64,000 bases of DNA from positions 1,615,012 to 1,679,011 of the forward strand of contig OZ250161.1 in assembly GCA_965237985.1 (NCBI GenBank), read 5' to 3'. How positions within the stretch are numbered: position 1 is the stretch's first letter; each line of letters opens with the position of its first letter. Below the pieces are notes generated by a model. That model did not search any database. It saw only the letters and a list, made by a program, of their open reading frames with translations, and had not been told where the DNA came from. A program made the translations under genes and the position numbers. Shown one piece after another: positions 4,120 to 51,659 of the stretch. This DNA comes from Candidatus Oxydemutatoraceae bacterium (GTDB taxonomy: Bacteria > Pseudomonadota > Gammaproteobacteria > Poriferisulfidales > Oxydemutatoraceae).

Positions 4120-4904
4120 TGCCTGAAGCTGATTTCAGCAACACGCAGCTGCTGCGTTACAGCCGCCAGCTCATGCTTCCTGAAATTGGCTTGCAAGGAC
4201 AGCATACCCTGCAGGATTCCTGCGTTTTGATCATTGGCATGGGAGGACTGGGCATTCCTCTGGCGACCTACCTTGCCACCAGCGGCGTCGGCAAACTGAT
4301 TCTGGTTGACGGAGATCGGATTGAACTCGCCAATCTTCACCGCCAGCCCCTGTATCGTGAAAGTGATGTCGGGGCGGAAAAAGTCACCGTGGTTGCGGAG
4401 CGCTTGGCGGCATTGAATTCGGAAATTGAAATACAGACGTTCGGCCAGCGCGCCGATGAAGACATGGTCAGCGATCTGGCGATCGGGGCGCAAGTGGTGG
4501 CCGACAGCTCGGACAACTTTCAGACCCGTTTTGCCGTGAATCGCGCCTGCTGGAAAAGCACCAGGCCCTTGGTGAGCGCCGCAGTCATTCGTATGGAAGG
4601 GCAACTCACGGTTTTTGATTCCAGGAACCCGGAAAGCCCGTGCTACGCCTGCCTGTATCCGGAACGGGTGTCGGGACAACAGGAGGAAAGTTGCGTGGAA
4701 AGCGGCATAGTCGCGCCTTTGGCCGGAATGATGGGCTGTGCCCAGGCACTGGAAGTTACCAAACTACTGCTGGATATTGGTACCTCTTTGACTGGTCGGT
4801 TTTTGATGCTGGATGCCCGTCTGATGGAATGGCGTGAAATCCGCCTTCGGAAAAGTCCGGGCTGCACGGTGTGCGGGCCTGCGAACCAGGGTGCCCGTGA
4901 CTGA
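4119..4904 (+). CDS. moeB: Molybdopterin-synthase adenylyltransferase MoeB (ThiF/HesA family)
   Basis: 'LIIGMGGLGIPLATYLATSGVGKLILVDGDRIELANLHRQ', plus C-terminal CxxC pairs (CYAC...CTVCG). Its last ~50 nt form part of the downstream 125-bp repeat. Confidence 0.85.
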   Translation: MPEADFSNTQLLRYSRQLMLPEIGLQGQHTLQDSCVLIIGMGGLGIPLATYLATSGVGKLILVDGDRIELANLHRQPLYRESDVGAEKVTVVAERLAALNSEIEIQTFGQRADEDMVSDLAIGAQVVADSSDNFQTRFAVNRACWKSTRPLVSAAVIRMEGQLTVFDSRNPESPCYACLYPERVSGQQEESCVESGIVAPLAGMMGCAQALEVTKLLLDIGTSLTGRFLMLDARLMEWREIRLRKSPGCTVCGPANQGARD

Positions 4905-6390
4905 AACAGACACCCTGCTGACCCTGGAGATTACTGGTACCAGACTGGACATCCCGGGAACCGCACATGTTTCCAGGAAGTCCGGACTGCACGGTGTGCG
5001 GGCCTGCGAACCAGGGTGCCCGTGACTGAAACAGACACCCTGCTGACCCTGGAGATTACTGGTACCAGACTGGACATCCCGGGAACCGCACATGTTTCCA
5101 GGAAGTCCGGGCTGCACGGTGTGCACCTGCGAACCAGGGTGCCCGTGACTGAAACAGACACCCCGCTGACCCTGGAGATTACTGGTACCAGACTGGACAT
5201 CTTGGGAACCGCCTGCGAACCAGGGTGCCCGTGACTGAAACAGACACCCCGCTGACCCTGGAGATTACTGGTACCAGACTGGACATCCCGGGAACCGCAC
5301 ATGTTTCCAGGAAGTCCGGGCTGCACGGTGTGCGGGCCTGCGAACCAGGGTGAAACAGACACCCCGTGACTGAAACAGACACCCAGGAAGTCCGGGCTGC
5401 ACGGTGTGCGGACCTGCGAACCAGGGTGCCCGTGACTGAAACAGACACCCCGCTGACCCTGGAGATTACTGGTACCAGACTGGACATCCCGGGAACCGCA
5501 CATGTTTCCAGGAAGTCCGGGCTGCACGGTGTGCGGACCTGCGAACCAGGGTGCCCGTGACTGAAACAGACACCCCGCTGACCCTGGAGATTACTGGTAC
5601 CAGACTGGACATCCGGGAACCGCACATGTTTCCAGGAAGTCTGGGCTGCACGGTGTGCGGGCCTGCGAACCAGGGTGTACCCGTGACTGAAACAGACACC
5701 CTGCTGACCCTGGAGATTACTGGTACCAGACTGGACATCTTGGGAACCGCACATGTTTCCAGGAAGTCCGGGCTGCACGGTGTGCGGACCTGTGAACCAG
5801 GGTGCCCGTGACTGAAACAGACACCCCGCTGACCCTGGGATTACTGGTACCAGACTGGACATCTTGGGAACCGCACATGTTTCCAGGAAGTCCGGGCTGC
5901 ACGGTGTGCGGGCCTGCGAACCAGGGTGCCCGTGACTGAAACAGACACCCCGCTGACCCTGGAGATTACTGGTACCAGACTGGACATCTTGGGAACCGCA
6001 CATGTTTCCAGGAAGTCCGGGCTGCACGGTGTGCGGGCCTGTGAACCAGGGTGCCCGTGACTGAAACAGACACCCTGCTGACCCTGGAGATTACTGGTAC
6101 CAGACTGGACATCCCGGGAACCGCACATGTTTCCAGGAAGTCCAGGCTGCACGGTGTGCGGACCTGCGAACCAGGGTGCCCGTGACTGAAACAGATACCC
6201 TGCTGACCCTGGAGATTACTGGTACCAGACTGGACATCCCGGGAACCGCACATGTTTCCAGGAAGTCCGGGCTGCACGGTGTGCGGACCTGCGAACCAGG
6301 GTGCCCGTGACTGAAACAGACACCCCGCTGACCCTGGAGATTACTGGTACCAGACTGGACATCTTGGGAACCGCACATGTTTCCAGTATC
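4850..6390. repeat. Tandem array of ~125-bp units, about 12 copies, each copying the moeB 3' end plus the TraB-family gene 5' end
   Basis: The motif 'cccgtgactgaaacagacacc' recurs at 4893, 5018, 5141, 5225, 5430, 5553, 5680, 5807, 5930, 6052, 6180 and 6303. Each unit encodes '...PGCTVCGPANQGARD*' (moeB tail) and 'MPVTETDTxLTLEITGTRLDIxGTAHVS' (TraB head). The period is not a multiple of 3. Confidence 0.9.
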
Positions 6391-7672: not shown

Positions 7673-8016
7673 CAAGCGGCCAGTCGGTCTATAAGCCGGG
7701 TTCTGTGATCGATAGTCATCCATCTGCGGTGTACGTCACCGCACACCTCTTGCGGCCCACCCGAACCTTGGCGCGGGCTACGCGGTTCTAAATTTGGCCT
7801 TGCTCCAAGTGAGGTTTACCCCGCCGCGCATGTTGCCATCCGCGCGGTGCGCTCTTACCGCACCTTTTCACCCTTACCCGCAATAAAGCGGGCGGTATAT
7901 TTTCTGTGGCACTTTCTGTAGGCTCGCGCCCCCCAGGTGTTACCTGGCACTCTGCCCTGTGGAGCCCGGACTTTCCTCTGCTCGAAGGCAGCGACTATCC
8001 GACCGACTCGCCGATT
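7673..8016 (-). ncRNA. rnpB: RNase P RNA, bacterial type A
   Basis: Minus-strand sequence contains 'AGGAAAGTCCGGGCTCCACAGGGCAGAGTGCCAGGTAACACCTGGGGGG', 'GGTAAGGGTGAAAAGGTGCGGTAAGAGCGCACCGCGCGG', 'GGTAAACCTCACTTGGAGCAAGGCCAAAT' and 'ACAGAACCCGGCTTATAGACCGACTGGCC'. These are collinear with E. coli M1 RNA. The P1 helix pairs ggcgagtcggtc with gaccgactggcc. Confidence 0.85.
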
Positions 8017-8236
8017 GCAGTTTACTCTTTCCCGACGGCCTGAAGGGGCATCCAGGCGACGGGCTGTCCAAGCAGTCCTTGTCGCTGAATTACAGGAAGC
8101 AGAGCAGATGTCGGGAAAGGAAAGCGGAAACAGCGGCCGCAACAGACGGGAGGTTTGCTACTTTCTTTTGCCTGTCCGACAAGCGAATGTTGCTTCAGGT
8201 TCTCCCGCAGATCAGCAAATGTTCCCCGTAGACCAA

Positions 8237-11200
8237 TGGCAAGACCCGTTTCAGTCAGGCTTTGCCTGCTCACCCATGGTGGTGTCGTAACTCTGTAACC
8301 TCAGGCGATGCATGGTGTCCCGTGCCTGTTCCTGTTGATGTGTATAAGGCCCGAGCAATACTTGGAATCATGTCTGGAACCGTTTGTTGTCGTTCGCAGG
8401 GACAGCATCGGTGCGGACTTCGAAGCCCAGTTCGACTACGGTTTTTTCCAGTTTCAAAGCAAGACCCGTTTCAGTCAGGATTTGCCTGCTCACCCATGGT
8501 GGTGTCGTAACTCTGTAACCTCAGGCGATGCATGGTGTCCCGCGCCTGTTTCTGTTGATGTGTATAAGGCCCGAGCAATACTTGGAATCATGTCTGGAAC
8601 CGTTTGTTGCCGTTCGCAGGGACAGCATTGGTGCGGACTTCAAAGCCTGGTTCGACTACGGTTTTTTCCAGTTTCAAAGCAAGACCCGTTTCAGTCAGGC
8701 TTTGCCTGCTCACCCATGGTGGTGTCGTAACTCTGTAACCTCAGGCGATGCATGGTGTCCCGCGCCTGTTTCTGTTGATGTGTATAAGGCCCGAGCAATA
8801 CTTGGAATCATGTCTGGAACCGTTTGTTGCCGTTCGCAGGGACAGCATCGGTGCGGACTTCAAAGCCTGGTTCGACTACGGTTTTTTCCAGTTTCAAAGC
8901 AAGACCCGTTTCAGTCAGGATTTGCCTGCTCACCCATGGTGGTTGTCGTAACCCTGTAGTCTGAGGCGATGCATGGTGTCCCGCGCCTGTTTCTGTTGAT
9001 GTGTATAAGGCCCGAGCAATACTTGGAATCATGTCTGGAACTGTTTCTTGTCGTTCCCAAGGACAGCATTGGTGCGGGCTTCAAAGCCCAGTTCGACTAC
9101 GGTTTTTTCCAGTTTCAAAGCAAGACCCGTTTCAATCGGGATTTGCCTGCTCACCCATGGTGGTGTCGTAACCCTGTAACCTCAGGCGATGCATGGTGTC
9201 CCGCGCCTGTTTCTGTTGATGTGTATAAGGCCCGAGCAATACCTGGAATCATGTCTGGAACCGTTTGTTGCCGTTCGCAGGGACAGCATCGGTGCGGACT
9301 TCAAAGCCTGGTTCGGCTACGGTTTTTTCCCGTTTCAAAGCAAGACCCGTTTCAATCGGGATTTGCCTGCTCACCCATGGTGGTGTCGTAACCCTGTAAC
9401 CTCAGGCGATGCATGGTGTCCCGCGCCTGCATCCTGTTGATGTGTATAAGGCCCGAGCAATACTTGGAATCATGTCTGGAACTGTTTCTTGTCGTTCGCA
9501 AGGACAGCATTGGTGCGGGCTTCAAAGCCCAGTTCGACTACGGTTTTTTCCAGTTTCAAAGCAAGACCCGTTTCAGTCAGGATTTGCCTGCTCACCCATG
9601 GTGGTGTCGTAACCCTGTAGTCTGAGGCGATGCATGGTGTCCCGCGCCTGTTTCTGTTGATGTGTATAAGGCCCGAGCAATACTTGGAATCATGTCTGGA
9701 ACTGTTTCTTGTCGTTCGCAAGGACAGCATTGGTGCGGGCTTCAAAGCCCAGTTCGACTACGGTTTTTTCCAGTTTCAAAGTAAGACCCGTTTCAGTCAG
9801 GCTTTGCCTGCTCACCCATGGTGGTGTCGTAACCCTGTAACCTCAGGCGGTGCATGGTGTCCCGCGCCTGTTCCTGTTGATGTGTATAAGGCCCGAGCAA
9901 TACTTGGAACTGTTTTTTGTCGTTCGCAAGGACGGCATGGTGCGGGTTTCGAAGTCTGGTTCGGCTACGGTTTTTTCCAGTTTCAAAGCAAGACCCGTTT
10001 CAATCGGGATTTGCCTGCTCACCCATGGTGGTGTCGTAACCCTGTAGTCTGAGGCGATGCATGGTGTCCCGCGCCTGTTCCTGTTGATGTGTATAAGGCC
10101 CGAGCAATACTTGGAATCATGTCTGGAACCGTTTGTTGCCGTTCGCAGGGACAGCATCGGTGCGGACTTCAAAGCCTGGTTCGGCTACGGTTTTTTCCAG
10201 TTTCAAAGCAAGACCCGTTTCAATCGGGATTTGCCTGCTCACCCATGGTGGTGTCGTAACCCTGTAACCTCAGGCGATGCATGGTGTCCCGCGCCTGTTC
10301 CTGTTGATGTGTATAAGGCCCGAGCAATACTTGGAATCATGTCTGGAACCGTTTGTTGTCGTTCGCAAGGACAGCATGGTGCGGGCTTCAAAGCCTGGTT
10401 CGACTACGGTTTTTTCCAGTTTCAAAGCAAGACCCGTTTCAATCGGGATTTGCCTGCTCACCCATGGTGGTGTCGTAACCCTGTAACCTCAGGCGATGCA
10501 TGGTGTCCCGCGCCTGTTCCTGTTGATGTGTATAAGGCCCGAGCAATACTTGGAACTGTTGGAACCGTTTGTGTCGTTCGCAAGGACAGCATGGTGCGGG
10601 TTTCGAAGCCTGGTTCGGCTACGGTTTTTTCCAGTTTCAAAGCAAGACCCGTTTCAGTCAGGATTTGCCTGCTCACCCATGGTGGTGTCGTAACTCTGTA
10701 ACCTCAGGCGATGCATGGTGTCCCGTGCCTGTTTCTGTTGATGTGTATAAGGCCCGAGCAATACTTGGAATCATGTCTGGAACTGTTTCTTGTCGTTCGC
10801 AAGGACAGCATTGGTGCGGGCTTCAAAGCCCAGTTCGACTACGGTTTTTTCCAGTTTCAAAGCAAGACCCGTTTCAATCGGGATTTGCCTGCTCACCCAT
10901 GGTGGTGTCGTAACCCTGTAACCTCAGGCGATGCATGGTGTCCCGCGCCTGTTTCTGTTGATGTGTATAAGGCCCGTTTCAAAGCAAGACCCGTTTCAAT
11001 CGGGATTTCCCTGCTCACCCATGGTGGTGTCGTAACTCTGTAACCTCAGGCGATGCATGGTGTCCCGCGCCTGTTTCTGTTGATGTGTATAAGGCCCGAG
11101 CAATACTTGGAATCATGTCTGGAACCGTTTGTTGCCGTTCGCAGGGACAGCATGGTGCGGGTTTCGAAGTCTGGTTCGGCTACGGTTTTTTCCAGTTTCA

Positions 11201-12010
11201 AAGCAAGACCTGTTTCAATCGGGATTTGCCTGCTCACCCATGGTGGTGTCGTAACCCTGTAACCTCAGGCGACGCATGGTGTCCCGTGCCTGTTTCTGTT
11301 GATGTGTATAAGGCCCGAGCAATACTTGGAACTGTTTTTTGTCGTTCGCAAGGACGGCATGGTGCGGGTTTCGAAGTCTGGTTCGGCTACGGTTTTTTCC
11401 AGTTTCAAAGCAAGACCCGTTTCAGTCAGGATTTGCCTGCTCACCCATGGTGGTGTCGTAACCCTGTAACCTCAGGCGATGCATGGTGTCCCGCGCCTGT
11501 TTCTGTTGATGTGTATAAGGCCCGAGCAATACTTGGAATCATGTCTGGAACCGTTTGTTGTCGTTCGCAGGGACAGCATCGGTGCGGACTTCAAAGCCCA
11601 GTTCGGCTACGGTTTTTTCCAGTTTCAAAGCAAGACCCGTTTCAATCGGGATTTGCCTGCTCACCCATGGTGGTGTCGTAACTCTGTAACCTCAGGCGAT
11701 GCATGGTGTCCCGCGCCTGTTTCTGTTGATGTGTATAAGGCCCGAGCAATACTTGGAATCATGTCTGGAACCGTTTGTTGCCGTTCGCAAGGACAGCATC
11801 GGTGCGGACTTCAAAGCCTGGTTCGACTACGGTTTTTTCCAGTTTCAAAGCAAGACCCGTTTCAATCGGGATTTGCCTGCTCACCCATGGTGGTGTCGTA
11901 ACCCTGTAACCTCAGGCGATGCATGGTGTCCCGTGCCTGCTGGTTGGTATAAGGCCCGAGCAATACTTGGAACTGTTTCTTGTCGTTCGCAAGGACAGCA
12001 TTGGTGCGGG
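8237..12010. repeat. Tandem array of ~220-bp units, about 17 copies, degenerate copies of the 3' end of the SPOR-domain gene
   Basis: 'gcgatgcatggtgtcc' recurs at 8306, 8526, 8746, 8966, 9187, 9407 and onward, every 220 bp. Minus-strand translation of each unit gives 'KLEKTVVELGFEARTNAVLANDKKQFQ', matching the C-terminus of the gene at 11862..12380. Confidence 0.9.
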
Positions 12011-12380
12011 CTTCAAAGCCCAGTTCGACTACGGTTTTTTTCAGTTTCTCCGCATCGCTGTGCAGGGCAAAAACGCGCGATTGCAAGTGGTATATTTTTG
12101 CCGAACTCGGGTGGTTGTCAGAGTCCCCGGTGACCAGTTTTTGACGATCCTTGAGCAAAGTGAAATAAGTGTAGCGGGCCTGTTGCACTTCGTTGTCTGC
12201 CACTATCGGTTTTTTTGCTGATGGAACGGGTGGCGTTGCCGGATTTCTGTCTGCGTTTACCTGATAGAGGTAGATGGTCAACACCACGAAGCCGACAAGC
12301 CCGGCGAACAGCACCCACCGTGTGGGTTTTTTCTGTGCTGTTTCCAGTTCGTGGGCCCGGTGTTTGTAGTCCTTGATCAT
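11862..12380 (-). CDS. SPOR-domain protein (N-terminal TM anchor, C-terminal SPOR peptidoglycan-binding domain)
   Basis: Membrane helix 'WVLFAGLVGFVVLTIYLY'. C-terminal 'VVELGFEARTNAVLANDKKQFQVLLGPYTNQQARDTMHRLRLQGYD' fits the SPOR fold. It lies downstream of argS, as with SPOR genes in other gammaproteobacteria. Confidence 0.7.
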   Translation of the reverse strand: MIKDYKHRAHELETAQKKPTRWVLFAGLVGFVVLTIYLYQVNADRNPATPPVPSAKKPIVADNEVQQARYTYFTLLKDRQKLVTGDSDNHPSSAKIYHLQSRVFALHSDAEKLKKTVVELGFEARTNAVLANDKKQFQVLLGPYTNQQARDTMHRLRLQGYDTTMGEQANPD

Positions 12381-12498: not shown

Positions 12499-14280
12499 TC
12501 ACATCCTGACCGGTGCTGTGATGCCACAAATGCCCAAACCATTTTCCAGTACCCGCGCCGTGGCCAAGAACAATCGCAATCTCGCTTTACGCAGGTGTGG
12601 ATCGTCGACAAGTACTTGGTGTCGGTTATAGCAACTGTGCAGTTTCGCCGCCAGATCCCGAAGATATACCAGAACATGGTGTGGTTCGTGGGCACGAAAT
12701 GCAATGTTCAAGGTATGAGAATAGAGGTGCAAATGATTGATTAAATCGACTTCTTCTTTTTCTCGCAACAAATGAAGTTGGTCGGATTTCCCTGTTGTAT
12801 CCGGGTACAGATCTTTAGCTTTGGCGGATACGCTGCGAATGCGGGCATGCGCGTACTGGATATAGAAGACCGGGTTTTTTTCGTTGCGGGATTTTGCCAA
12901 GTCGATGTCAAAGTCCAAATGCTGGCTCGGTTTTCTGAACAGGAAAAAGAAGCGCGCTGCTTCGACACCGACTTCTTCATACAAATCGCGCAGTGTCACA
13001 AAACTTCCGGCACGCGTAGACATGGGTTCCTTCTGGCCGTCACGCAGCAATGTCACGAACTGCACAAAGACGGTGTGCAATTTCTGCTTTTCATAGCCCA
13101 TGGCAGAGAGTGCGGCGCGCAAACGAGTTTCGTAGCCGTGGTGGTCAGCACCCCAGACATTGATGAATCGGTCGTAGGGGCGCCCTTCCCGGTCTCTGCG
13201 GTCAAATTTGTCTTTGTGATAGGCAATGTCTGAAGCGAAGTAAGTAAAGCGGCCGTCGCTACGTTGCACGACATGATCTTTTACATCACCAAAATGTGTG
13301 GAACGAAACCAGAGTGCCCCGTCATGGCGATAAGTATGTTCTCTTTCCCTGAGAATCTTGAGGACTTCTTCGATTTTTTTCTGTTCTATCAACTCCCGTT
13401 CCGATTGCCAGTGACGAAAGGTCACTTTGAAATCTTTTAGGTCACGTTTTATGTCTTGCTTGATTTTCGCGAGCGCAAATTTCCGGATCCGAGCGGTATC
13501 CGCTTCCCCGATCGCGAGATTTTGGAAAACGATGAGCTCGTCTATCCGTTTTTCTGCATCGTTTGTCGTCGCAGTCCACTCCGGCTGATCGCTTGGTGTG
13601 GGAACAAATTTGTCACCATACTCATCCCTCAGCTCATCTGCCCGATCCCTGATGTAACTGCCCTGGTATGCCGAGAGCGGGAATGGAATCGTTTTGCGGG
13701 CTTTTGCACCCTCAAGGTAGCGGAGCCAGACCGAAAGGCCCAGGACATCGACCTGCCTGCCGGCGTCGTTGACGTAGTATTCATGTTCTACATGGTGGCC
13801 GAAGCGCTTGTTCAAGTCAGCCAGTGCGCTTCCGTATGCCGCCCCCCGGCCATGACCAACATGCAGAGGACCGGTCGGGTTGGCAGAAACATATTCAACG
13901 AGCACCCGCTCGCGTGTAGTTTCCAGTTCTGGAAATTGACTCCCGGTTTTCAATATGCGTTCAATTATGGTTTCCGCCCCGGCAATATAAAAATTTATAA
14001 AGCCCGGGCCCATTGGCTCGATTTTTTTCAGTCCGCCGGGGCCGGGGCACTGCATTTTGGCAATGATTTCCCTGGCAACTTCCATTGCCGGTTTTTCCAC
14101 CTGACGTGATAAAACCATGGCTACATTGGTGGTGTAGTCTCCGTACACCGCCACTCGGCAAGGTTCTACTTTGGGGGCCACCCTGTCCACAAGCTCTTTG
14201 TCAAACAAAGCCAGCAGGGCGTTTTTGAGATCCTTCTGGATTTCCAGGGCTCTGTTTTCAGTTGTCAAATGGGGATCCAC
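12499..14280 (-). CDS. argS: Arginyl-tRNA synthetase
   Basis: Full-length class I aaRS with a HIGH-like 'PTGPLHVGHGRGA' motif and a DALR anticodon-binding domain. I placed the start at GTG 14280, giving 593 aa. The ORF runs on to ATG 14391, which would add a 37-aa non-homologous extension. Confidence 0.85.
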   Translation of the reverse strand: MDPHLTTENRALEIQKDLKNALLALFDKELVDRVAPKVEPCRVAVYGDYTTNVAMVLSRQVEKPAMEVAREIIAKMQCPGPGGLKKIEPMGPGFINFYIAGAETIIERILKTGSQFPELETTRERVLVEYVSANPTGPLHVGHGRGAAYGSALADLNKRFGHHVEHEYYVNDAGRQVDVLGLSVWLRYLEGAKARKTIPFPLSAYQGSYIRDRADELRDEYGDKFVPTPSDQPEWTATTNDAEKRIDELIVFQNLAIGEADTARIRKFALAKIKQDIKRDLKDFKVTFRHWQSERELIEQKKIEEVLKILREREHTYRHDGALWFRSTHFGDVKDHVVQRSDGRFTYFASDIAYHKDKFDRRDREGRPYDRFINVWGADHHGYETRLRAALSAMGYEKQKLHTVFVQFVTLLRDGQKEPMSTRAGSFVTLRDLYEEVGVEAARFFFLFRKPSQHLDFDIDLAKSRNEKNPVFYIQYAHARIRSVSAKAKDLYPDTTGKSDQLHLLREKEEVDLINHLHLYSHTLNIAFRAHEPHHVLVYLRDLAAKLHSCYNRHQVLVDDPHLRKARLRLFLATARVLENGLGICGITAPVRM

Positions 14281-15103
14281 CGTTGCCAGGAATAAAGCAT
14301 GACCGGCATCAGCCAGGCACGGGGGGCGTAAAGATCGGGTTCCTGAAGTCGTTCGGTGAACTGAACAGGTAGCCGGTGCCTGCTGCGACATTTTTCATTT
14401 CTGGTCTGCGAGTTGTATCGTGCGAGGCGTTGCCTGCATTTCTGGAACACGAGGGCGACACCAGGCAGTACCCGTTGTCGAGTCTGGCAAGCTTCGACAT
14501 TACCATGGCCAGTACTTGGACCACCATGAACAAGTATCTGATTTCCTCCTTTTTTTTCAATCCAGATTTTGACATGAATACCGTGAATCAGTACGTGCGG
14601 GCACTTGCTGCATGTTGTATGTGCCCCACCGGCAAGCGTGAAAGAATTCCCATCAATTCCCACAAGGCCGGCCCGAGGAGATGATCAAGTTTGCCGCTCA
14701 CTCAAGGCAGACCCGGCACCGGTTTGTGTCAAAGCCGAGATTCCGCACAACGGAATAGCTGGAAAAGCGTGCGTGCATTGTTGCCAGAAAGAATTCCCAC
14801 GTTTGGCAACCACCCGAAGCATCATGCTCTGGTGTCAGTCTTGTGGCGAATTCTGCGAGTCACCGTCGCTTCGAAAACCAGCCGCCAAGATGGATTTCTC
14901 AGTGCCGACATCGTGCCGGGCATCAAGAAGAGACAGTTCATTCACGAAACCGACCGCGCGGAGCCTGTGGTTCAGAGTCCCGCCCGTTTGTAGTGGTCAT
15001 TTGACGATTCGGGCTTCCTTTTCAGCGAAGTCCATTCCTCGTACAAAGTCGCCGATGTGGGCTACGAACTGACCGACCCTCTTTTTCTTTTTCTCCCACC
15101 GTC

Positions 15104-16033: not shown

Positions 16034-17892
16034 ATTGCCAGGCGGGCTTCTTTTTTCCCGCCGTAAATCAGGTTGGCAATGGCGCGCGTGCCTATAATGG
16101 CTGTGAACATGGAGCACAGAATGCCAATGGACAACGTCACGGCAAAACCCTTGATAGGGCCAGTGCCAAAAGTGAAAAGCACCACTGCCGCAATCAGAGT
16201 AGTCACATTTGCGTCGGCAATCGTTGACAAAGCCTGTCGGTAGCCGGAATCGATGCTGACTTGCGTTGAGTTACCCTGTTTCAGATGTTCGCGGATGCGC
16301 TCGAAAATCAAGACATTGGCATCCACCGCCATACCCACTGTCAAAACGATTCCGACGATGCCGGGCAAAGTCAAGGTGGCTCCAGGTATCAGGGACATTA
16401 TGGCAACGATGAGCACGAGATTGGCAATCAAAGCAAGATTTGCCAGCATGCCGAAGGTTCGGTAATAAATCCCCATGAACAGCACGACCAGCAGGAAAGC
16501 CAAGAGAACAGAGCGCTTTCCCTGGTCGATGTTGTCCTGCCCCAGGCTCGGCCCTACGGTGCGCTCTTCCACGATCTGCATCGGGGCTGCCAGAGCTCCT
16601 GAGCGCAACAGCAAAGAAAGTTTGCGGGCCTCGCGAGTGTCGTCCAGCCCGGTAATCTGGAAGCGCTTGCCGAGCTGTTCCTGGATGCGGGCAACGTTGA
16701 TGACTTCTTCCACGGTACGCAAGCGCCGCTTCGTTTCTCCGGTCAGGCTTTTTACTTTTTCGCTTTTGTTTTCAATGAATACCACCGCCATCAATCGCTT
16801 GACATTTTCACCGGTTACTTTGCTGAACAGCCGTGCTCCTTTTCCGTCCAAAGTGATGTGCACCGCCGGCCGGCCGGTTTCGGAATCTATGCCGGAAGAC
16901 GCGCTCGTGATGTATTCCCCGCTTAGCATCACACGGCGTTTGAGCAATATCGGATCGCCATTGCGTTCGTAATACAGTTTGGTGCCACGCGGTATCCCGC
17001 CCGTTCTGGCCGCACGCTGTGGGTCTTCATTTTCCGCCACCAAGCGAAACTCCAATGTCGCGGTGGCGCCCAGGATGTCTTTCGCCCGCGCTGTGTCCTG
17101 CACTCCCGGCAATTGCACCACGATGCGATCGCGACCTTGCCGGGTAACGGTCGGCTCGGCGACTCCCAATTCGTTCACGCGCTTGCGCAAAGTCACGATG
17201 TTTTGCTGCACCGCGAAATCCGACAGTTCCTTGACCGCATTCTCGGTCAGTTGAAAAAACGCCTGCAATGGGTCTGGATTTTCTTCCTTGGCCACAAGCG
17301 CGTTCGGGCTTTCTTTTTTCACCAGCTCCACGGCCCGGTCTCTTTCCTCCTGATTGGCGAAAGAAAAAGCGATCGCGTCCGCGGCTATTCTGGTTTTTCG
17401 ATAGCGTATCTTTTCCTTGCGAAACAAGGCGCGAAGTTCATTGTGATACCCCAACAATGCTTTATCTCTGGCCGCATCGACATCGACTTCCAACAAAAAA
17501 TGGACGCCGCCCCGCAAGTCCAGGCCCAGGTTCATGGGTGCTGCGTTGAGCGAACGTAGCCACTCCGGAGTGGTTGCCGCCAAGTTCAATGCCACGATGT
17601 AGCCAGGAGGAGCCCAGTCTCTCAACAGCCCAGAGGCCAGCAGCTGCGAATCCGTGTTGTGGAAACGGATCAGCAGTCCCTGAGGAGTCTTGTCCATGGA
17701 CTTCCATGACACTGTCTCCTTGGCGAGCGTTTCTGTAATCTGGTCGCTGATGGTGTCGCCGATGATGCCGTCAACCACGTTGGAAATCTGTACCGCCGGA
17801 TCATCGGGATAAATGTTTGGTAATGCGTAAACGGTTGCTGCCAGCAACACGAACACAATCAGGACGTGTTTCCAGACGGGATAATGGTTCAT
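16030..17892 (-). CDS. secD: Protein translocase subunit SecD
   Basis: 620 aa with N-terminal TM helix, periplasmic domain and C-terminal 6-TM core ('GIVLTVGMAVDANVLIFERIRE'). yajC-secD-secF operon. Confidence 0.9.
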   Translation of the reverse strand: MNHYPVWKHVLIVFVLLAATVYALPNIYPDDPAVQISNVVDGIIGDTISDQITETLAKETVSWKSMDKTPQGLLIRFHNTDSQLLASGLLRDWAPPGYIVALNLAATTPEWLRSLNAAPMNLGLDLRGGVHFLLEVDVDAARDKALLGYHNELRALFRKEKIRYRKTRIAADAIAFSFANQEERDRAVELVKKESPNALVAKEENPDPLQAFFQLTENAVKELSDFAVQQNIVTLRKRVNELGVAEPTVTRQGRDRIVVQLPGVQDTARAKDILGATATLEFRLVAENEDPQRAARTGGIPRGTKLYYERNGDPILLKRRVMLSGEYITSASSGIDSETGRPAVHITLDGKGARLFSKVTGENVKRLMAVVFIENKSEKVKSLTGETKRRLRTVEEVINVARIQEQLGKRFQITGLDDTREARKLSLLLRSGALAAPMQIVEERTVGPSLGQDNIDQGKRSVLLAFLLVVLFMGIYYRTFGMLANLALIANLVLIVAIMSLIPGATLTLPGIVGIVLTVGMAVDANVLIFERIREHLKQGNSTQVSIDSGYRQALSTIADANVTTLIAAVVLFTFGTGPIKGFAVTLSIGILCSMFTAIIGTRAIANLIYGGKKEARLAI

Positions 17893-17898
17893 GGGTGT

Positions 17899-18225
17899 TT
17901 AGTCTTTCAAAGTCCCTTTCGGCATCAGTTGTGCCACTGCCTGTTTTTGGACTTTCACGATCATGTTGTTGGACACTTCAAGTTTTACGAAAGTTTCGCC
18001 AACTTCCACCACGCGACCGAGCAACCCACCGTTGGTGACTATCTCATCGTTGCGCGACAGGGAGGCGATCATTTGCTTGTGTTCCTTGTTGCGCTTGCTT
18101 TGGGGGCGGATAACCAGCAGGTAGAGAATGAGGAAAAACGCCCCAAGCAAAACCAGAGTTTCAATGCCGCCACTCGAGGAGGGGTTTGGTGTTTGCGCCA
18201 TGGCATTTTGAATAAAAATTTCCAT
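17899..18225 (-). CDS. yajC: Preprotein translocase subunit YajC
   Basis: 108 aa with single TM 'LVLLGAFFLILYLLVIRPQSKR' and 'GGLLGRVVEV'. Immediately upstream of secD. Confidence 0.9.
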   Translation of the reverse strand: MEIFIQNAMAQTPNPSSSGGIETLVLLGAFFLILYLLVIRPQSKRNKEHKQMIASLSRNDEIVTNGGLLGRVVEVGETFVKLEVSNNMIVKVQKQAVAQLMPKGTLKD

Positions 18226-18391
18226 CAGTATTTCCTACCTCTTCTGTGAAGATTCTGGGCTTTCCAAGTGTCTTTATGCCGTTCCCGGGTTTTCACCTTG
18301 GATGCGCGGCTGCGATAGAACCTAGGGCCGTAAGATTATGGCACAACTCGGCTGTCGCCAAACGCCGGCCAGTGGAGCAAAAACAAGGTTT

Positions 18392-19380
18392 ATCTGGAGG
18401 GGGTTGGTGTGTGCGCCATGGCATTTTGAATAAAAATTTCCACCAGTATTTCCTACCTCTTCTGTGAAGATTCTGGGCTTTCCAAGTGTCTTTATGCCGT
18501 TCCTTGGTTTTTCACCTTCCGCTAAAGCTGGGGTCGCGCCCAAGTTGCCGTCCGTTGCCGTTTTCGGCAAAGACTTTTTGCCTGGTCTACCAAGTTGCCG
18601 CGCCCCTTTGCCAGTCTGAGCATAACGGTTTCGTGGCTGTCTCTCTGCCTGTTGCCAGCTGCGTCCCGAGGAAAGTCGACGTGTCGACATCGGCCCGGAA
18701 TTTTCCACCATCCGGCATGAACTCCCCGTCACCAGCCGCCACTCACCATCAAGTCTCCACGTCCTGTTCATTGGAAGCTTCTTCCGCTAAAGCTGGGGTC
18801 GCGCCCAAGTTGCCGTCCGTTGCTGTTTTCGGCAAAGACTTTTTGCCCTGTATGCCCAACTCTTCCAGTTTTTTTGCCTGGTCTACCAAGTTGCCGCGCC
18901 CCTTTGCCAGTCTGAGCATAACGGTTTCGTGGCTTTCTCTCTGCCTGTTGCCAGCTGCGTCCCGAGGAAAGTCGACGTGTCGCCATCGGCCCGGAATTTT
19001 CCATCATCCGGCATGAACTCCCCGTCACCAGCCGCCACTCACCATCAAGTCGCCACGTCCTGTTCATTGGAAGCTTCTTCCGCTAAAGCTGGGGTCGCGT
19101 CCAAGTTGCCGTCCGTTGCCGTTTTCGGCAAAGACTTTTTGCCCTGTATGCCCAACTCTTCCAGTTTTTTTTGGCCTGGCCTACATAAGTTGCCGCGCCC
19201 CTTTGCCAGTCTGAGCATAACGGTTTCGTGGCTTTCTCTCTGCCTGTTGCCAGCTGCGTCCCGAGGAAAGTCGACGTGTCGCCATCGGCCCGGAATTTTC
19301 CACCATCCGGCATGAACTCCCCGTCACCAGCCGCCACTCACCATCAAGTCTCCACGTCCTGTTCATTGGAAGCTTCTTCC
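18392..19380. repeat. Composite repeat: a duplicate of the yajC 5' end and upstream region (18392-18520 copies 18175-18300), plus three extra ~299-bp tandem copies of the rmuC 3' end
   Basis: 'ttccgctaaagctggggtcgcg.ccaagttgccgtccgttgc' occurs at 18517, 18780, 19078 and 19378 (the last within rmuC). Minus-strand units encode 'GRPGKKSLPKTATDGNLGATPALAE', the rmuC C-terminus. 'ttctgtgaagattctgggctttccaagtgtctttatgccgttcc' occurs at 18243 and 18460. Confidence 0.85.
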
Positions 19381-20651
19381 GCTAAAGCTGGGGTCGCGCC
19401 CAAGTTGCCGTCCGTTGCTGTTTTCGGCAAAGACTTTTTGCCCTGTATGCCCAACTCTTCCAGTTTTTTTGCCTGGCCTACTAAGTTGCCGCGCCCCTTT
19501 GCCAGTCTGAGCATAACGGTTTCGTGGCTTTTGCAGGCCCGTTCCAGGTTTTTCCCCAAGTCTTTCGCAGACTCCAGGACGCCACTTACTTTATTGTAGA
19601 AAGACGCAGCCTGTCGCACAATTTTCTGGGTGTTCTCTTGCTGCTTGTGAGAGCGCCAGAGGTTTTCAATGATGCGTAAAGTCGGCATCAAGGTATTGAG
19701 CGTCACGAGTCCGACGCGCATTCGCAAAGACTCATCGAATAACGAGGAGTCTTCGTTCAGTGCCGCCGCCAGCGCGTTCTCCAAGGGCACAAACATGAGA
19801 ACGAAATCCAGCGAGTGGACCTGCGGCAGGTCTTGGTAGTTTTTCGCGGCCAGGTCTTTGATATGTTTGCGCATGGCTGCCAGGTGTGCTTTCAGGCATT
19901 TGCTTTTGGCCTCCTCGTTTTTTGCCTCCTGGGCGTTCAGGTAGTCGACCATATTCAGTTTTGAATCGATGATGACCTGGCGGTCAGTCGGCAATTCAAT
20001 CACTATGTCTGGGCGTAACAGGGTGCCGTCTTCGTTGCGATAGCTTTTCTGGGCGTGATAATCCACGCCTTCCTGCAGCCCTGCGGCTTCAAGGATGCGT
20101 CCCAGCTGCACTTCCCCCCAACTGCCTCGTACCTGCGGTGACCGACGCAAGGCGCTTACCAGCTCCTGCGCTTCGTGCGCCAGGGATTCATTTATTTCAC
20201 GTACGTTTTTCAAACCTTCAACCAGCGTGGTGCGCTCCCGGGTAGTTTCATGTCCTTGTCGTTCCAGTTGTTCGCGAAACTGCTGAAACGCTTCCTGAAG
20301 TGGTTTTACGGTGGCATTGAGTTCGCTTTTCCCACGTTCGGCGTAACGGCTGTCAAGCACCTTCATGCTTTTCAAAGTCGCCTGTTCGAGCCGCGCGTCG
20401 AGGGACTGTTCATGTTCTTGGTAAATTTGCGTGCGGCTTTCCAGTCGTGCGCACTCTTCACGTTGCAACTGATGCGCTGCACGTTCTTTTTCCAGTTCCG
20501 ATTGCTCGTGGCGAAGCTGCGTTTCCTGTTCCCGACACAAGGTCTCCACCTGCTTGCGTTTCTGTTGTTCCATTTTGTGTTTGTGCACGAAAAACATTGC
20601 CCCGATAGCGCCCCCCGCACCAGCGCCGAGCAATAAATAGATCACTTCCAC
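19344..20651 (-). CDS. rmuC: DNA recombination protein RmuC
   Basis: N-terminal TM, long coiled-coil region, C-terminal RmuC nuclease-like domain ('DFVLMFVPLENA'). 435 aa. Confidence 0.85.
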   Translation of the reverse strand: MEVIYLLLGAGAGGAIGAMFFVHKHKMEQQKRKQVETLCREQETQLRHEQSELEKERAAHQLQREECARLESRTQIYQEHEQSLDARLEQATLKSMKVLDSRYAERGKSELNATVKPLQEAFQQFREQLERQGHETTRERTTLVEGLKNVREINESLAHEAQELVSALRRSPQVRGSWGEVQLGRILEAAGLQEGVDYHAQKSYRNEDGTLLRPDIVIELPTDRQVIIDSKLNMVDYLNAQEAKNEEAKSKCLKAHLAAMRKHIKDLAAKNYQDLPQVHSLDFVLMFVPLENALAAALNEDSSLFDESLRMRVGLVTLNTLMPTLRIIENLWRSHKQQENTQKIVRQAASFYNKVSGVLESAKDLGKNLERACKSHETVMLRLAKGRGNLVGQAKKLEELGIQGKKSLPKTATDGNLGATPALAEEASNEQDVET

Positions 20652-20850: not shown

Positions 20851-22089
20851 CTAGGGTTCTTGCCGACTTTCCCCGGTAGGCTTCATCGGCGGCAGGGTCT
20901 GCTTCCCTCTCGTGTGCTCGCTCTGCCTGAGTAGTGCCCAGCGGACGTGCTCGCGCACCAAGGGTGAGGAGTGGTTCGTTCTACTGCGCAACGCCTGAGC
21001 CACCTTTTTGCTGCGCGGCGCGTTGCCGAGCCCCACGGCAAGATTGCGCAGCCAGCGTTCGTAACCCAGTCGGCGCAAAGTGCTGCCACGCGTCCGGGCA
21101 GCAAAGTCTTTTTCATCCCAGTCCCAGAGAGACAGCAAAGTCGCAGCGTCCAGTCCCTTGCGCACCTGGAAAGCAGTTTCTTCGCTGGTTTTCGCAAAAC
21201 GGTTCCAAGGGCAGATGGTCTGGCAATCGTCGCAGCCGAAAATACGATTGCCGATCAACGGTCTCAGTGTTTCCGGGATAGTCCCTTTGTGCTCGATAGT
21301 GAGGTAAGCGATGCAACGACTTGCGTCCAACCGGTATGGTGCGATGATGGCACGGGTCGGACACACATCCAAGCAGCGTCGGCAACTGCCACAGTGGTTT
21401 TTTGCGGGACGGGAAACGGGGAGCGGGAGGTTGGTGTAGAGCTCGCCGAGAAAAAACCACGAACCCACACGGCGATTGAGCACCAAGGTGTTTTTCCCAA
21501 TCCAGCCCAAACCCGCTTGTTCGGCAATGGCTTTTTCCATGACCGGGGCACTGTCGCAAAAAGCTCGGTAATGAAAAGTTCCGGCGGCCTGAGTAATTTT
21601 GTCAGCGAGTTTCTGCAAACGTTTGCGTATCAGTTTGTGGTAATCACCACCAAGTGCGTAGCGGGCAATCTGTGCCAGGTCGGAAGCGTCTTCGTCGAGG
21701 CCATGACCGGCAACCCCGGGCGGCAAATAATTCATCCGTACTGAAATGATGGTTAGGGTTCCGGGCATCAGTTGTGCCGGACGCGTACGCTTGGTGCCAT
21801 GTTTTTCCATGAATGCCATGTCGCCGTGCATGCCATCGCGCAACCAATTCAGCAGGCGACTTTCGTGTTCGCCGATGTCTGCGTGACTGATTCCGGTCGC
21901 CTGAAAGCCCAGCTCGCTTGCCCACCGCTTGATTCGTTGCACCAGTCTTCGCAGCTTCGTTGTAGCAAGCGAGGTGTCGCCTGACACGCTGGTTTGGTGA
22001 GTTGGCGAACCGCGGGTTTTCACGCTGGCCTGGTTGGTTAGCGGGTCGCGGGCTTTCACGCTGACCTGTGGCAAGTCATGGGCTTTCAT
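20851..22089 (-). CDS. queG: Epoxyqueuosine reductase QueG (start uncertain; N-terminus overlaps an in-frame 66-bp repeat)
   Basis: 'RIKRWASELGF', 4Fe-4S ferredoxin cysteines 'CGSCRRCLDVCP' and 'CDDCQTICPWN', HEAT-like C-terminus. The conserved part begins near 'TTKLRRLVQRIKRW'. The upstream 50 aa are repeat-encoded. Confidence 0.8.
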   Translation of the reverse strand: MKAHDLPQVSVKARDPLTNQASVKTRGSPTHQTSVSGDTSLATTKLRRLVQRIKRWASELGFQATGISHADIGEHESRLLNWLRDGMHGDMAFMEKHGTKRTRPAQLMPGTLTIISVRMNYLPPGVAGHGLDEDASDLAQIARYALGGDYHKLIRKRLQKLADKITQAAGTFHYRAFCDSAPVMEKAIAEQAGLGWIGKNTLVLNRRVGSWFFLGELYTNLPLPVSRPAKNHCGSCRRCLDVCPTRAIIAPYRLDASRCIAYLTIEHKGTIPETLRPLIGNRIFGCDDCQTICPWNRFAKTSEETAFQVRKGLDAATLLSLWDWDEKDFAARTRGSTLRRLGYERWLRNLAVGLGNAPRSKKVAQALRSRTNHSSPLVREHVRWALLRQSEHTRGKQTLPPMKPTGESRQEP

Positions 22090-22520
22090 GCTGTTTGGTT
22101 GGCGAACCGCGGGCTTTCACGCTGACCTGCGGCGAGTCATGGGCTTTCATGCTGGTTTGGTTGGTTAGCGAACCGCGGGCTTTCATGCTGGCCTGGTTTG
22201 GTTGGTTGTGGCAAGTCATGGGCTTTTGCTGGTTTGGTTGGTTAGCGAACCGCGGGCTTTCACGCTGACCTGTGGCAAGTCATGGGCTTTCATGCTGACC
22301 TGTTGGTTAGCGAACCGCGGGCTTTCATGCTGGCCTGTGGCAAGTCATGGGCTTTCATGCTGGCCTGGTTGGTTAGCGGGTCGCGGGCACTCATGCTGAC
22401 CTGTGGCAAGTCATGGGCTTTCATGCTGACTTGCGGGGAGTCATGGGCTTTCATGCTGGCCTGGTTGGTTAGCGGGGCGCGGGCTTTCACGCTGGCCTGC
22501 GGCGAGTCATGAGTTTTCAC
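21960..22520. repeat. Tandem 66-bp repeat, about 8 units, in frame with queG on the minus strand, encoding (MKAHDLPQVSVKARDPLTNQAS)n
   Basis: Alternating 'gacctgtggcaagtcatgggctttcatgctg' and 'gcctggttggttagcgggtcgcgggctttcacgct' units between 22021 and 22520. Every unit carries an in-frame ATG on the minus strand. Confidence 0.85.
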
Positions 22521-33769: not shown

Positions 33770-34165
33770 TGGGGCTGGGGCAGGGATGGTTACTGCCTGA
33801 GAAAGGCATGGTCTGGTCCTTGGTGCGAAGGGGCGCGTTAGGACCCGCGCTGCTCTGCTGATTTATCGGCATTCCTTTGTCCCCCGTAAATCCTGTTTCG
33901 TGCCGGCAACCTTTATGGCCCTGCGGTCTGGTGAGTTCCCTCGACTTTGACAATGAACGTTTTGTTCACTGGCTGGGGCAGGGATGGTTACTGCCTGAGA
34001 AAGGCATGGTCTGGTCCCCGGTGCGAAGGGGCGCGTTAGGACCCGCGTTGCTCTGCTGATTTGTCGGCATTCCTTTGTCCTCCGTAAATCCTGTTTTTGT
34101 GCCGGCAACCTTTGCGGCCCTGCGGCCTGGCGGGTTCCCTCGACTTTGCCAGTGAATGTTTTGTT
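33770..34165. repeat. Two tandem ~197-bp units resembling the 3' end and downstream region of the minus-strand AmmeMemo gene
   Basis: 33770-33965 closely matches 33965-34165. Both resemble 34238-34330 (compare 'ccagtgaatgttttgttcactg...tttgtcctccgtaaatcctgtttt' with 'ccagtgaattgaactgaagcg...tttgtccgtaaagctggcacg'). Confidence 0.7.
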
Positions 34166-34237
34166 CACTGACTGACGCAACTCGCCACCTCAGCCACCTG
34201 GCTTCAGGTACAGGGATATTTTGTGGCCCCAGTTCCC

Positions 34238-35644
34238 CTAGGCCAGTTCTTCATCGCTCCAGTGAATTGAACTGAAGCGCCTGACCGTTTGTTTTTGTCC
34301 GTAAAGCTGGCACGTGATGCCGGCTTTGATTTTCAAGTGTGCGAGAAAGTCTTCCGGTTCAGGCAGTGTCTCCCAGACTTCCGGAAGGAAAGTGCCGCTT
34401 TGTGGGGGGGCTCCCAGGACTAGGCCATCAATGCCTGGTCTGATTTTTTTCAAAAGCTCCGCTTCATCACGGTAAGGAACTTTTTCAAGGTCTGAAAGAA
34501 CGGATATGGAAATAGACAGTTGGTCAAGCTCCTCCCTGACCAAGGGCGTGAATCGACTATCCCGGAAGGCTGCGCTTACAGCATTACCTGCTATTGATGA
34601 CACCAGTGGGCGAGTGGCGTTGATGGTGCCCACACAGCCGCGGAGTTGGCCTTGGTTTTTCAAAGTCACGAAACAGGCGGCTTTTTTGCGCAGTGCTTCG
34701 GAATGGCTGGCAACGTCAACGGCAATTTCAGAGCCGTACTCAAGTTGGTGGTCAATGGCGTTGCGAGCCAGTGTGCACAGCAACTTTTTTTCAGCCTGCG
34801 AGAAAGGTTGTGTCTCGTACATGGTGAAAGCCGCGTAGCCCACAACTCTGCTTTTGTCACCGCTGACATCGCCAGAATTGATCTGCGCAATTTTTTCCAC
34901 TTCCATGCTCTTTTGGCGAGCGACTTGGAGCAGCCCGCCCAGCAGAATCTGTCCGCAAGCCTGTGTTTCACTGATTTCTTCGGGTTGCAGCCTTAAAACA
35001 GAATCTACCGCCGAGTTGTCAAGGGTGTAGGCGGTATCGTAGTCATGGTAGTGACTGAGGTCGGTGCTGATGATCACGAGCGTTTCATCGCCACCCCAGA
35101 AATGATTGATCAACAGGGCCGCCTGTTCGTAACTTGCTCCACTGGTTACGAAGGGTAAAAGAACAAACTCTTCCAGAACCTGCTGCAAAAAAGGCAACTG
35201 TACTTCAATGCTGTGCTCTCGCACGTGCGCAGGGTCGTTGTATTCCACAAAAGGCAAGGTGGCAACCGCATCTGCAATGCCTGCCTGGTCGATGGAAACG
35301 TCCCCCAAGGGTGTGCGATATGCCGTGGCCGTGGGAGCACACAGTTTGGCGGTTGGAACGTAATGTGCGGGCCCGAGCAGGACTACTTTTTTAATGTTGT
35401 GCGACACATCGGCAAGCATTGCGTAGGCATGGGCGGCAATCTTTCCCGAGTACATATATCCGGCATGGGGGGCAACCAGTGCTTTCGGTGATTTTCTATT
35501 CTCTTTTGGTAAAGAGGTTTGTGCGACCTCTGCGAGCAAGTGCTCCACTTCGGTCTTCAGAGCGCCCGATTCGTCGGGATAAAAAAGACCTGCAACTGCT
35601 GCCTGCCTGACACGATTTTCAAGTGGCTTTGTAATGTCTACCAT
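34238..35644 (-). CDS. AmmeMemoRadiSam system fusion: protein B (MEMO1-like, N-terminal) plus protein A (AMMECR1 domain, C-terminal)
   Basis: N-terminal 'AGLFYP...LVAPHAGYMYSG...LGPAHY' (Memo-like). C-terminal 'ACFVTLKNQGQLRGCVGT' (AMMECR1 signature). 468 aa. No radical-SAM partner gene is adjacent. Confidence 0.8.
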   Translation of the reverse strand: MVDITKPLENRVRQAAVAGLFYPDESGALKTEVEHLLAEVAQTSLPKENRKSPKALVAPHAGYMYSGKIAAHAYAMLADVSHNIKKVVLLGPAHYVPTAKLCAPTATAYRTPLGDVSIDQAGIADAVATLPFVEYNDPAHVREHSIEVQLPFLQQVLEEFVLLPFVTSGASYEQAALLINHFWGGDETLVIISTDLSHYHDYDTAYTLDNSAVDSVLRLQPEEISETQACGQILLGGLLQVARQKSMEVEKIAQINSGDVSGDKSRVVGYAAFTMYETQPFSQAEKKLLCTLARNAIDHQLEYGSEIAVDVASHSEALRKKAACFVTLKNQGQLRGCVGTINATRPLVSSIAGNAVSAAFRDSRFTPLVREELDQLSISISVLSDLEKVPYRDEAELLKKIRPGIDGLVLGAPPQSGTFLPEVWETLPEPEDFLAHLKIKAGITCQLYGQKQTVRRFSSIHWSDEELA

Positions 35645-51653: not shown

Positions 51654-51659
51654 CACTAA

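Follow-up and report, generated by a model that had tools for sequence, protein, structure and literature searches.

A 64,000-nucleotide stretch of contig OZ250161.1 from a Candidatus Oxydemutatoraceae bacterium (hereafter the window, to which all positions refer unless a relative is named) contains a gene encoding a SPOR-domain protein, the 3' end of which is followed by a long series of tandem copies of itself extending almost as far as rnpB, the gene for the RNase P RNA; gene, array and rnpB are all located on the minus strand. The question raised by this locus is whether the copies constitute a reservoir of SPOR modules for recombination, as suggested by an earlier reading made from the sequence alone (the sequence-only reading), an element with some role as DNA or RNA, or the residue of a duplication process. 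Because the SPOR array proved to be one of about ten that together cover around one-fifth of the window, it is most likely a by-product of runaway duplication rather than a module store. The interpretation considered likely here is that of a bacterial minisatellite, a near-neutral consequence of a tandem duplication that spanned the end of a gene, its copies having since been multiplied and kept alike by unequal recombination.

Analysis with Tandem Repeats Finder (TRF) confirmed a 220-bp period across positions 8239–12048, reported as two rows (8239–10976, 93% matches, score 4702; 10976–12048, 90% matches, score 1601), the period and scores being far above chance; a 441-bp dimer period scored marginally above the 220-bp period. 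A 15-nt anchor (CCATGGGTGAGCAGG) was found 18 times on the minus strand, at a spacing of about 220 bp; all 18 lie between 8265 and 11876, and the rest of the window has none. The copy of the repeated segment that belongs to the gene (U0) is followed by 17 downstream units (U1–U16, with a truncated unit, U4b, among them), so that the array of 17 x 220 bp originally proposed holds for the downstream copies, 16 of which are near full length. Alignment of the units and the resultant identity matrix gave values of 91–100% between units and of 91–98% between units and U0, and the similarity to the SPOR gene 3' end that had been claimed for the units was thereby upheld. The array does not abut rnpB, as had been thought: a unique spacer of 228 bp separates the two, and the units occupy 94% of the interval between the SPOR gene and rnpB, very nearly but not quite the whole of it. 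The promoter of rnpB is presumably located in this spacer. As the entire 220-bp unit repeats head to tail without unique spacers, there is no architecture of the type seen in clustered regularly interspaced short palindromic repeats (CRISPR). A dispersed repeat or mobile element, whether repetitive extragenic palindrome (REP), miniature inverted-repeat transposable element (MITE) or insertion sequence (IS), was likewise ruled out, the unit being confined to 8239–12048 and there being no similarity between arrays.

The source gene itself is intact. Residues 95–162 of its product match the Pfam SPOR domain (PF05036, E 3.2e-6), and the protein is co-linear up to its final residue with orthologues of 60% identity in two relatives, L001 (a circular European Nucleotide Archive (ENA) contig of 1.92 Mb) and L002 (OZ244118.1, a metagenome-assembled genome (MAG) labelled 'uncultured candidatus Porisulfidus sp.'). 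The gene lies downstream of argS, an order also found in relatives. Identification of the protein as FtsN was considered and not adopted, the match to TIGR02223 reaching 21 bits against a cut-off of 107.65. The longest open reading frame (ORF) for the adjacent arginyl-tRNA synthetase (ArgRS; 12499–14391, minus strand) comprises 630 aa compared with 590–598 aa in relatives, and because the alignments begin at around residue 10–50, translation probably starts further downstream than the first ATG.

The downstream units differ from U0 in ways that clearly affect their coding capacity. Each of the 17 carries a 6-bp insertion (an extra Lys/Glu-Gln), and in 13 of them a 12-bp micro-duplication of neighbouring sequence creates an in-frame TGA (..KRFQT*FQVLL..); one unit has a 9-bp version of this micro-duplication, two have none, and U4b does not cover the site. 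A 1-bp deletion is present in five units and a 1-bp insertion in two. Since U0 and the orthologues of L001 and L002 lack both the 12-bp and the 6-bp insertion, these originated in the array. Furthermore, each unit starts inside the SPOR domain (residue 112, as opposed to a domain start at residue 95), retains the gene's own stop codon and carries the 15 nt of non-coding sequence beyond it, while the period itself is not a multiple of three (220 = 3 x 73 + 1). Translation revealed a premature stop and/or a frameshift in every unit. To judge from this anatomy the units are dead copies that could not be translated into SPOR modules, since the stop of the gene is kept in every one of them and the period shifts the frame from each to the next.

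The frame-breaking effect of the 220-bp period had been recognised in the sequence-only reading, and is compounded by the additional stops and deletions just described. The peptide KLEKTVVELGFEARTNAVLANDKKQFQ, said to be encoded in each unit, occurs exactly in three units and as variants in all the others; and although the units are indeed copies of the SPOR gene 3' end, they correspond to only about the C-terminal three-quarters of the Pfam match and at no point to a whole module. The ORFs at 8308–8730, 10057–10701 and 11085–11681 were rightly dismissed as repeat artefacts, since each is wholly contained in the array and runs antisense to the source gene, as do most of the ORFs listed there. 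The practical outcome is that 3.6 kb of array is non-coding, and that its many ORFs of 60–200 aa should stay unannotated.

The units also retain a record of their history. Variant sites (CTG/CCA, GCC/GTC/ACC, AAT/GAT, presence or absence of the 12-bp insertion, CTGAGGTTA/CTCAGACTA and CCCGAT/CCTGAC) are combined in many different ways, and identity to U0 exhibits no gradient with distance, the closest unit (U11, 98%) being situated deep in the array; both features indicate that the units have exchanged or converted sequence unequally, and repeatedly. Differences among units are mostly amino-acid-changing in the N-terminal half and mostly synonymous in the C-terminal half, with two clusters that are entirely so. 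The overall ratio of non-synonymous to synonymous polymorphism (pN/pS) is about 0.47, and hypervariable blocks are absent. Alignment with the 3' ends of the L001 and L002 genes indicated that at one site (CAT-CAA, for AAC-CAG in the gene) all aligned units keep the orthologue state and the present gene is derived, that at a second (GAC, for GAT) eight of the 17 units do so, and that at a third (CTC..CTA, for CTG..TTA) the orthologue state persists in a minority, namely U8, U10 and U13. On this comparison the array stores older alleles of the 3' end of the functional SPOR gene, which would account for the clusters of synonymous variants in the C-terminal half. The gene's derived states in other units argue for continued seeding or exchange from the gene copy, whereas fixed differences of the gene copy from all units in its 3' half argue against any recent entry of array sequence into that part of the gene. 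The mosaic haplotypes reveal exchange between units and probably also from gene to array, which is ordinary concerted evolution and not the operation of a cassette system.

The SPOR array is by no means isolated. TRF and self-BLAST detected about ten long-period arrays at the boundaries of unrelated genes within the window (Table 1), and TRF coverage under the settings of PMC3287509 amounted to 19.1% as a union and 32% when summed. The largest of these arrays is composed of units of about 75 bp of upstream sequence plus the first ~92 bp of murJ coding sequence (~30 codons, start codon included), with the intact murJ following the last unit. The first copy in the atpC array is the intact gene end. 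Units of the thiF/traB array join the 3' end of a thiF-family gene to the 5' end of a traB-family gene, two genes that in L001 overlap by 4 bp with no array between them. In each array the gene-proximal copy completes an intact gene. BLAST comparisons within the window found no sequence common to different arrays, and the SPOR unit only in its own array, which indicates that each is home-grown; a 10-mer (TGACTGAAAC) present at the stop codons of both thiF and the SPOR gene was rejected as a chance match (BLAST E 0.5–0.9). That arrays of the same kind are found at murJ, atpC, rmuC, yajC, thiF/traB and queA/tgt, and again in relatives, means that no function specific to SPOR is needed to explain the one considered here.

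Table 1. Positions of the SPOR locus features and of the other long-period arrays within the window.
Feature	Position	Strand	Description and basis
SPOR-domain gene, intact, source of the repeat	11862–12380	-	172 aa; C-terminal SPOR domain preceded by a short N-terminus, one hydrophobic stretch and a linker
U0, the gene's own copy of the repeated segment	11847–12048	-	202 bp: codons 112–172 (61 codons), TGA stop, 15 nt downstream
U1–U16, 17 downstream units	8239–11846	-	16 of 207–221 bp plus one truncated; decayed copies of U0
U4b, 122-bp unit	10859–10980	-	first ~98 bp missing (internal deletion); 122-bp anchor spacing, TRF period-122 row, alignment
Unique spacer between array and rnpB	8011–8238	-	228 bp; sequence inspection
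Conserved motif GCTGTTTCCGCTTTCCTTTCCC upstream of rnpB	8113–8134	-	comparison with L001 and L002
rnpB, RNase P RNA class A	7676–8010	-	Rfam RF00010, 303.8 bits, full length
murJ array	38312–42945	+	~26 x 174 bp; TRF, BLAST of murJ 5' end against array
atpC 3'-half array	51434–52155	+	3 x ~240 bp; TRF, ORF translations repeat MLEVQPDLVTVLADT...AVARLH
thiF/traB array	4853–6386	+	~12 x 125 bp, higher-order 250/375 bp; TRF, Pfam
rmuC 3' end plus downstream; yajC 5'/upstream duplication	18178–19531	-	296 bp x 3.2; 218-bp offset; TRF, self-BLAST
queA 3' end/downstream ORF 5' end	36809–37283	-	258 bp x 1.8; self-BLAST, ORF coordinates, Pfam (queA)
Short-period array between divergent queG and yjeF	21985–22519		30-, 66- and 96-bp periods; TRF, Pfam, self-BLAST; overlaps queG ORF 5' end
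Duplication just downstream of ORF 34238–35644 (minus)	33773–34174		198 bp x 2; self-BLAST

The ArgRS and SPOR proteins have few relatives in the databases, ArgRS identity to L001 and L002 being 64–67%; a closer relative, L162, was identified via MurJ (84% identity). TRF union coverage was 25.7% in L164, 21.6% in L002 and 14.1% in L162, as against 2.6% in L167, 2.4% in L165, 2.3% in L001 and 0.2% in L163, while for 84 unrelated argS loci the median was 0% (mean 0.58%, maximum 8%). Between L002 and L164, obtained from different samples and about 98% identical, six arrays are shared, three of which differ in copy number (139 bp, 3.0 and 1.9 copies; 250 bp, 4.1 and 5.1 copies, this being the counterpart of the rmuC 3' array of the window; 494 bp, 3.0 and at least 3.9 copies), from which it follows that the arrays are both real and turning over. 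The murJ array of L162 has the same unit boundaries as that of the window, with about seven units of 185 bp in place of about 26, and its units resemble one another more than they do those of the window; that array is therefore older than the divergence of window and L162, and its evolution is concerted. In addition, the Memo/AMMECR1 gene of L162 ends in an array of 180 bp x 4, comparable to the duplication at 33773–34174 of the window, and the ORF downstream of queA in the window corresponds to tgt by synteny with L162.

Duplications at the boundary between the SPOR gene and rnpB were also found in the more distant relatives. In L001 there are three units of ~280 bp at the SPOR 3' end, each joining the final ~45 bp of the gene to the intergenic sequence beyond it, while in L002 and L164 a direct repeat of ~380 bp, which reaches from the SPOR 3' end into the start of rnpB, lies on either side of a 1.7-kb insert containing a DUF4268 gene. 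The same boundary has thus undergone duplication independently in three lineages, the end points being different in each. The two repeat copies of L002 (12430–12806 and 14497–14875) consist of the final ~95 bp of the SPOR gene, the sequence between the two genes and the opening ~60 nt of rnpB, with the same arrangement in L164; the insert, in which the DUF4268 protein has 369 aa, looks like an insertion into or beside the duplicated segment, and a truncated 5' copy of rnpB has been left upstream of the real one.

Taken together, these data are consistent with the following course of events, of which the initial duplication has to be inferred. A 202-bp segment reaching from codon 112 to 15 nt past the stop would first have been duplicated in tandem, at no cost, since the segment crosses the gene end and the first copy completes an intact gene. 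Free of selection, the second copy would then have gained the 6-bp insertion and the TGA-bearing 12-bp micro-duplication, both absent from the gene and its orthologues. Unequal homologous recombination and/or replication slippage would have amplified this decayed copy to 17 units, the same processes holding the units 91–100% alike and shuffling their variants into mosaic haplotypes; RecA is encoded in the relative L001. Occasional participation of the gene copy at the array edge would explain why the array holds older alleles, the ancestral states of which are evident in the alignment, and any recombinants that placed stop-bearing array sequence into the gene would presumably have been purged by selection. 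Throughout the lineage, the simplest account of the observed pattern would be that tandem duplications arise locally at a high rate and then pass through a selective filter: duplications inside a gene break it, while those at a gene end leave an intact gene plus a free fragment, and the arrays would thus consist of gene heads or tails beside an intact gene because only duplications that straddle a boundary or are intergenic survive.

A number of observations weigh against this interpretation. The founding junction (CTTGC-TTT-GAAAC) presents no clean microhomology, only 'TGC' being shared and three junction bases (TTT versus GGA) not being accounted for by it. The mostly synonymous variation of the C-terminal half, attributed above to inherited gene alleles, may alternatively reflect past translation. 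The survival of the murJ array through speciation, and the recurrence in three lineages of arrays with dissimilar unit limits at the SPOR 3' end or upstream of rnpB, could indicate hotspots or some benefit as opposed to pure neutrality. Finally, no same-species genome in which the copy number of the SPOR array could be compared was found by exact look-ups of the SPOR protein, of P0001 (its twin in the database) and of a protein at the window edge (no contig recorded), by a SPOR homologue search (the window's own protein and one relative of 60% identity), or by ArgRS scans of Joint Genome Institute (JGI) metagenome contigs (identities of at most 47%), of GTDB species representatives (one relative, 64%) and by homologue search (none above 67%).

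The alternative that survives best, while still unlikely, is that such arrays are kept by selection for a role as DNA or RNA, for example in keeping the SPOR transcript at a distance from, or insulated against, the rnpB promoter, in multiplying promoters or terminators, or as structured RNA. The location of the array between a protein-coding gene and rnpB on the same strand accords with this proposal, as do the persistence since the L162 split of a murJ array that multiplies a promoter-proximal region, and the fact that the window, L001 and L002 all have duplications either at the SPOR 3' end or upstream of rnpB. Direct searches were less favourable. No Rfam match was recorded at E <= 1 over 8011–9000, the unit folded no better than shuffled sequence on either strand (z-scores of -0.19 and +1.13), and a promoter scan yielded no more sites than shuffles. 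Hairpin-plus-T sites did exceed expectation (24 found, 7.5 expected), and are present in most units; they are weak and almost all on the strand opposite to the gene, and the excess arises because one weak hairpin repeats with the unit. At the level of sequence there is no sign of an RNA or regulatory role for the array. Moreover, no motif is common to the different arrays, their copy number drifts between genomes that are ~98% identical, and the content of a unit is whatever happens to sit at the gene boundary.

The silent-cassette reservoir, in which units would donate sequence to the expressed SPOR gene by gene conversion after the manner of Borrelia vls or Neisseria pilS, was judged to be very unlikely. 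It is true that a gene (assumed to be expressed) adjoins an array of partial copies with mosaic haplotypes, and that the 5' halves of U5, U10, U11 and U13 are nearly identical to the gene copy, making exchange plausible. As noted above, however, a stop and/or frameshift intervenes between the two halves of every unit, and conversion tracts covering those sites would truncate the gene; the module reservoir originally envisaged is not supported. The units differ by a mere 0–9% with no hypervariable segments, the gene copy retains its fixed 3'-half differences from all of them, and the same architecture is found at atpC, murJ, rmuC and thiF/traB, genes that would have nothing to gain from being diversified. 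A further point against such a system is that SPOR domains are not exposed antigens but periplasmic peptidoglycan binders. Two of the features that define one, open in-frame cassettes and variable regions with amino-acid-changing differences, were looked for and found to be absent.

That the array or its length was created by the assembler is highly improbable. Long tandem arrays are admittedly hard to assemble, and the exact copy number is known from the assembly alone; nevertheless, individual substitutions and indels in mosaic combinations are not assembler inventions, the independent assemblies of L002 and L164, from different samples, share array sites, and four separate assemblies exhibit the same syndrome. 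The last possibility, a remnant of a multi-SPOR gene or a gene translated through the array by read-through and frameshifting, could appeal to the existence of proteins with several SPOR domains and to nine units that are single-frame end to end except for the internal TGA, but is effectively refuted by unit anatomy, given that each unit contains the gene stop and its 15 nt of downstream non-coding sequence in a period of 3n+1, that translation would need to get past two stops and a frameshift in each unit, 17 times over, and that all three orthologues have a single SPOR domain with the same end residue.

The minisatellite interpretation invites comparison with repeat systems described elsewhere. 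By analogy, the SPOR array would belong with the known gene-fragment tandem repeats of the Ehrlichia ruminantium type, here in an unrelated lineage: within the one window sampled it shares with them head-to-tail units, an origin in a piece of the neighbouring gene, and the company of many other arrays. Collins reportedly found that most pseudogenes of E. ruminantium are truncated gene fragments associated with repeats. As summarised in papers that cite the original descriptions (Collins 2005 PNAS; Frutos et al. 2006 J Bacteriol; cited in PMC10710844 and PMC3287509), the repeats of that organism are head-to-tail units of ~100–500 bp in non-coding DNA, abundant throughout the genome and associated with longer intergenic regions, and differ in copy number between close strains, a property seen here in the sister arrays (L002/L164 and murJ). 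Slipped-strand mispairing has been proposed as the mechanism (PMC3287509). The differences are those of lineage, lifestyle and local load. E. ruminantium is an obligate intracellular alphaproteobacterium, whereas the window derives from a gammaproteobacterium related to sponge-associated 'Ca. Porisulfidus' MAGs, genomes of this kind having been reported from the metagenome, assembled with HiFi reads, of a carnivorous sponge (PMC12988363). The TRF content of E. ruminantium, given as the highest tandem-repeat content reported for bacteria, is 6.3% (summed) with a mean period of 139 bp, compared with 0.38% in E. coli (PMC3287509, Table 4); that of the present material is higher on either measure, if the figures for one window may be set beside those for a whole genome, and its arrays reach 17–26 copies and 3.6–4.6 kb.

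Other systems are less close. The VNTR-141 and VNTR-105 loci (variable number tandem repeats) of Wolbachia wMel are similarly intergenic, with periods of 105–141 bp, internal unit deletions, near-identical units within a strain (concerted evolution) and copy numbers that differ between close strains; by comparison, they are few in number, account for 1–2% of the genome, and have hairpin-bearing units not described as gene-end fragments (PMC3287509). Borrelia vlsE/vls and Neisseria pilE/pilS each combine one expressed gene with a nearby array of partial copies that exchange by gene conversion, but their cassettes are open and in frame, have defined variable regions and encode surface antigens, whereas the SPOR units are interrupted by stops and frameshifts, vary little, come from a domain that binds peptidoglycan in the periplasm, and have counterparts in the arrays beside housekeeping genes. 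The minisatellites and satellite DNA of eukaryotes are alike in unit length, in mosaic and higher-order variants (cf. the 441-bp dimer), and in homogenisation within and divergence between genomes (cf. murJ); the difference is that the present arrays reside in a bacterial chromosome, where deletion bias normally removes such DNA. A search of the literature on tandem arrays in sponge symbionts found nothing relevant.

It is apparent from these comparisons that the SPOR array is in itself an ordinary genetic element, and that the notable feature is the lineage-wide repeat load. A broader proposition is advanced here tentatively, and with more doubt than conviction: that the lineage comprising the window, L162, L002 and L164 carries the heaviest long-period tandem-repeat load known for any bacterium, amounting to about one-fifth of its DNA, with some arrays surviving speciation and evolving in concert. 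Gene-boundary minisatellites account for 14–26% of every region sampled from two sub-lineages with a genome of ~2 Mb, which runs against the usual picture of compact, deletion-biased bacterial genomes, and if the load of the window were genome-wide it would be about three times the figure for E. ruminantium. Such a load would suggest either that the fidelity of replication or recombination has changed in this lineage or that the arrays confer some benefit, and would provide a natural system for the study of bacterial minisatellite dynamics. Arrays that hold older alleles could in addition serve as very fine strain markers for uncultured symbionts. Conversely, they will confound gene calling, pseudogene counts and short-read assembly in the group.

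An example of inflated gene counts is provided by the 494-bp array of mobB 3' fragments (L002 18729–20208; L164 18715–20987), units of which have been called publicly as three or four 'MobB' genes. In the array-poor relative L165 (MurJ identity 58%), positions 16666–17173 contain a 246 bp x 2 duplication of the atpG 3' end that has been called as a 61-aa ATP-synt fragment; a tendency to duplication is therefore present at a low level outside the array-rich clade. Within the window, the queG ORF (20851–22089, minus strand) would encode 412 aa compared with 356–386 aa in relatives, and as the 5' extension enters the short-period array at 21985–22519, the annotated start is probably too far upstream.

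The sole array seen within a gene is a 618-bp (206-codon) in-frame direct duplication at 54662–55901, with 92–96% identity between copies, located inside ORF 54561–55967 after the HsdM methylase gene. This ORF is presumably hsdS, and the duplication may be a recent one of the target-recognition half.

Comparison of the three rnpB upstream regions also revealed a conserved motif (Table 1), the counterparts of which are GCTGTTTCCACTTTCCTTTCGC in L001, present in three copies, one per repeat unit (~10624, ~10886 and ~11187), and GCTGTTTCCATTTTCCTTTCCC in L002 (12640–12661 and 14708–14728). The consensus, GCTGTTTCC(A/G)(C/T)TTTCCTTTC(C/G)C, is situated ~100–130 nt upstream of rnpB in all three lineages within intergenic sequence that has otherwise diverged. 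The motif region produced no match in Rfam; the motif could have a regulatory role or belong to a small transcript.

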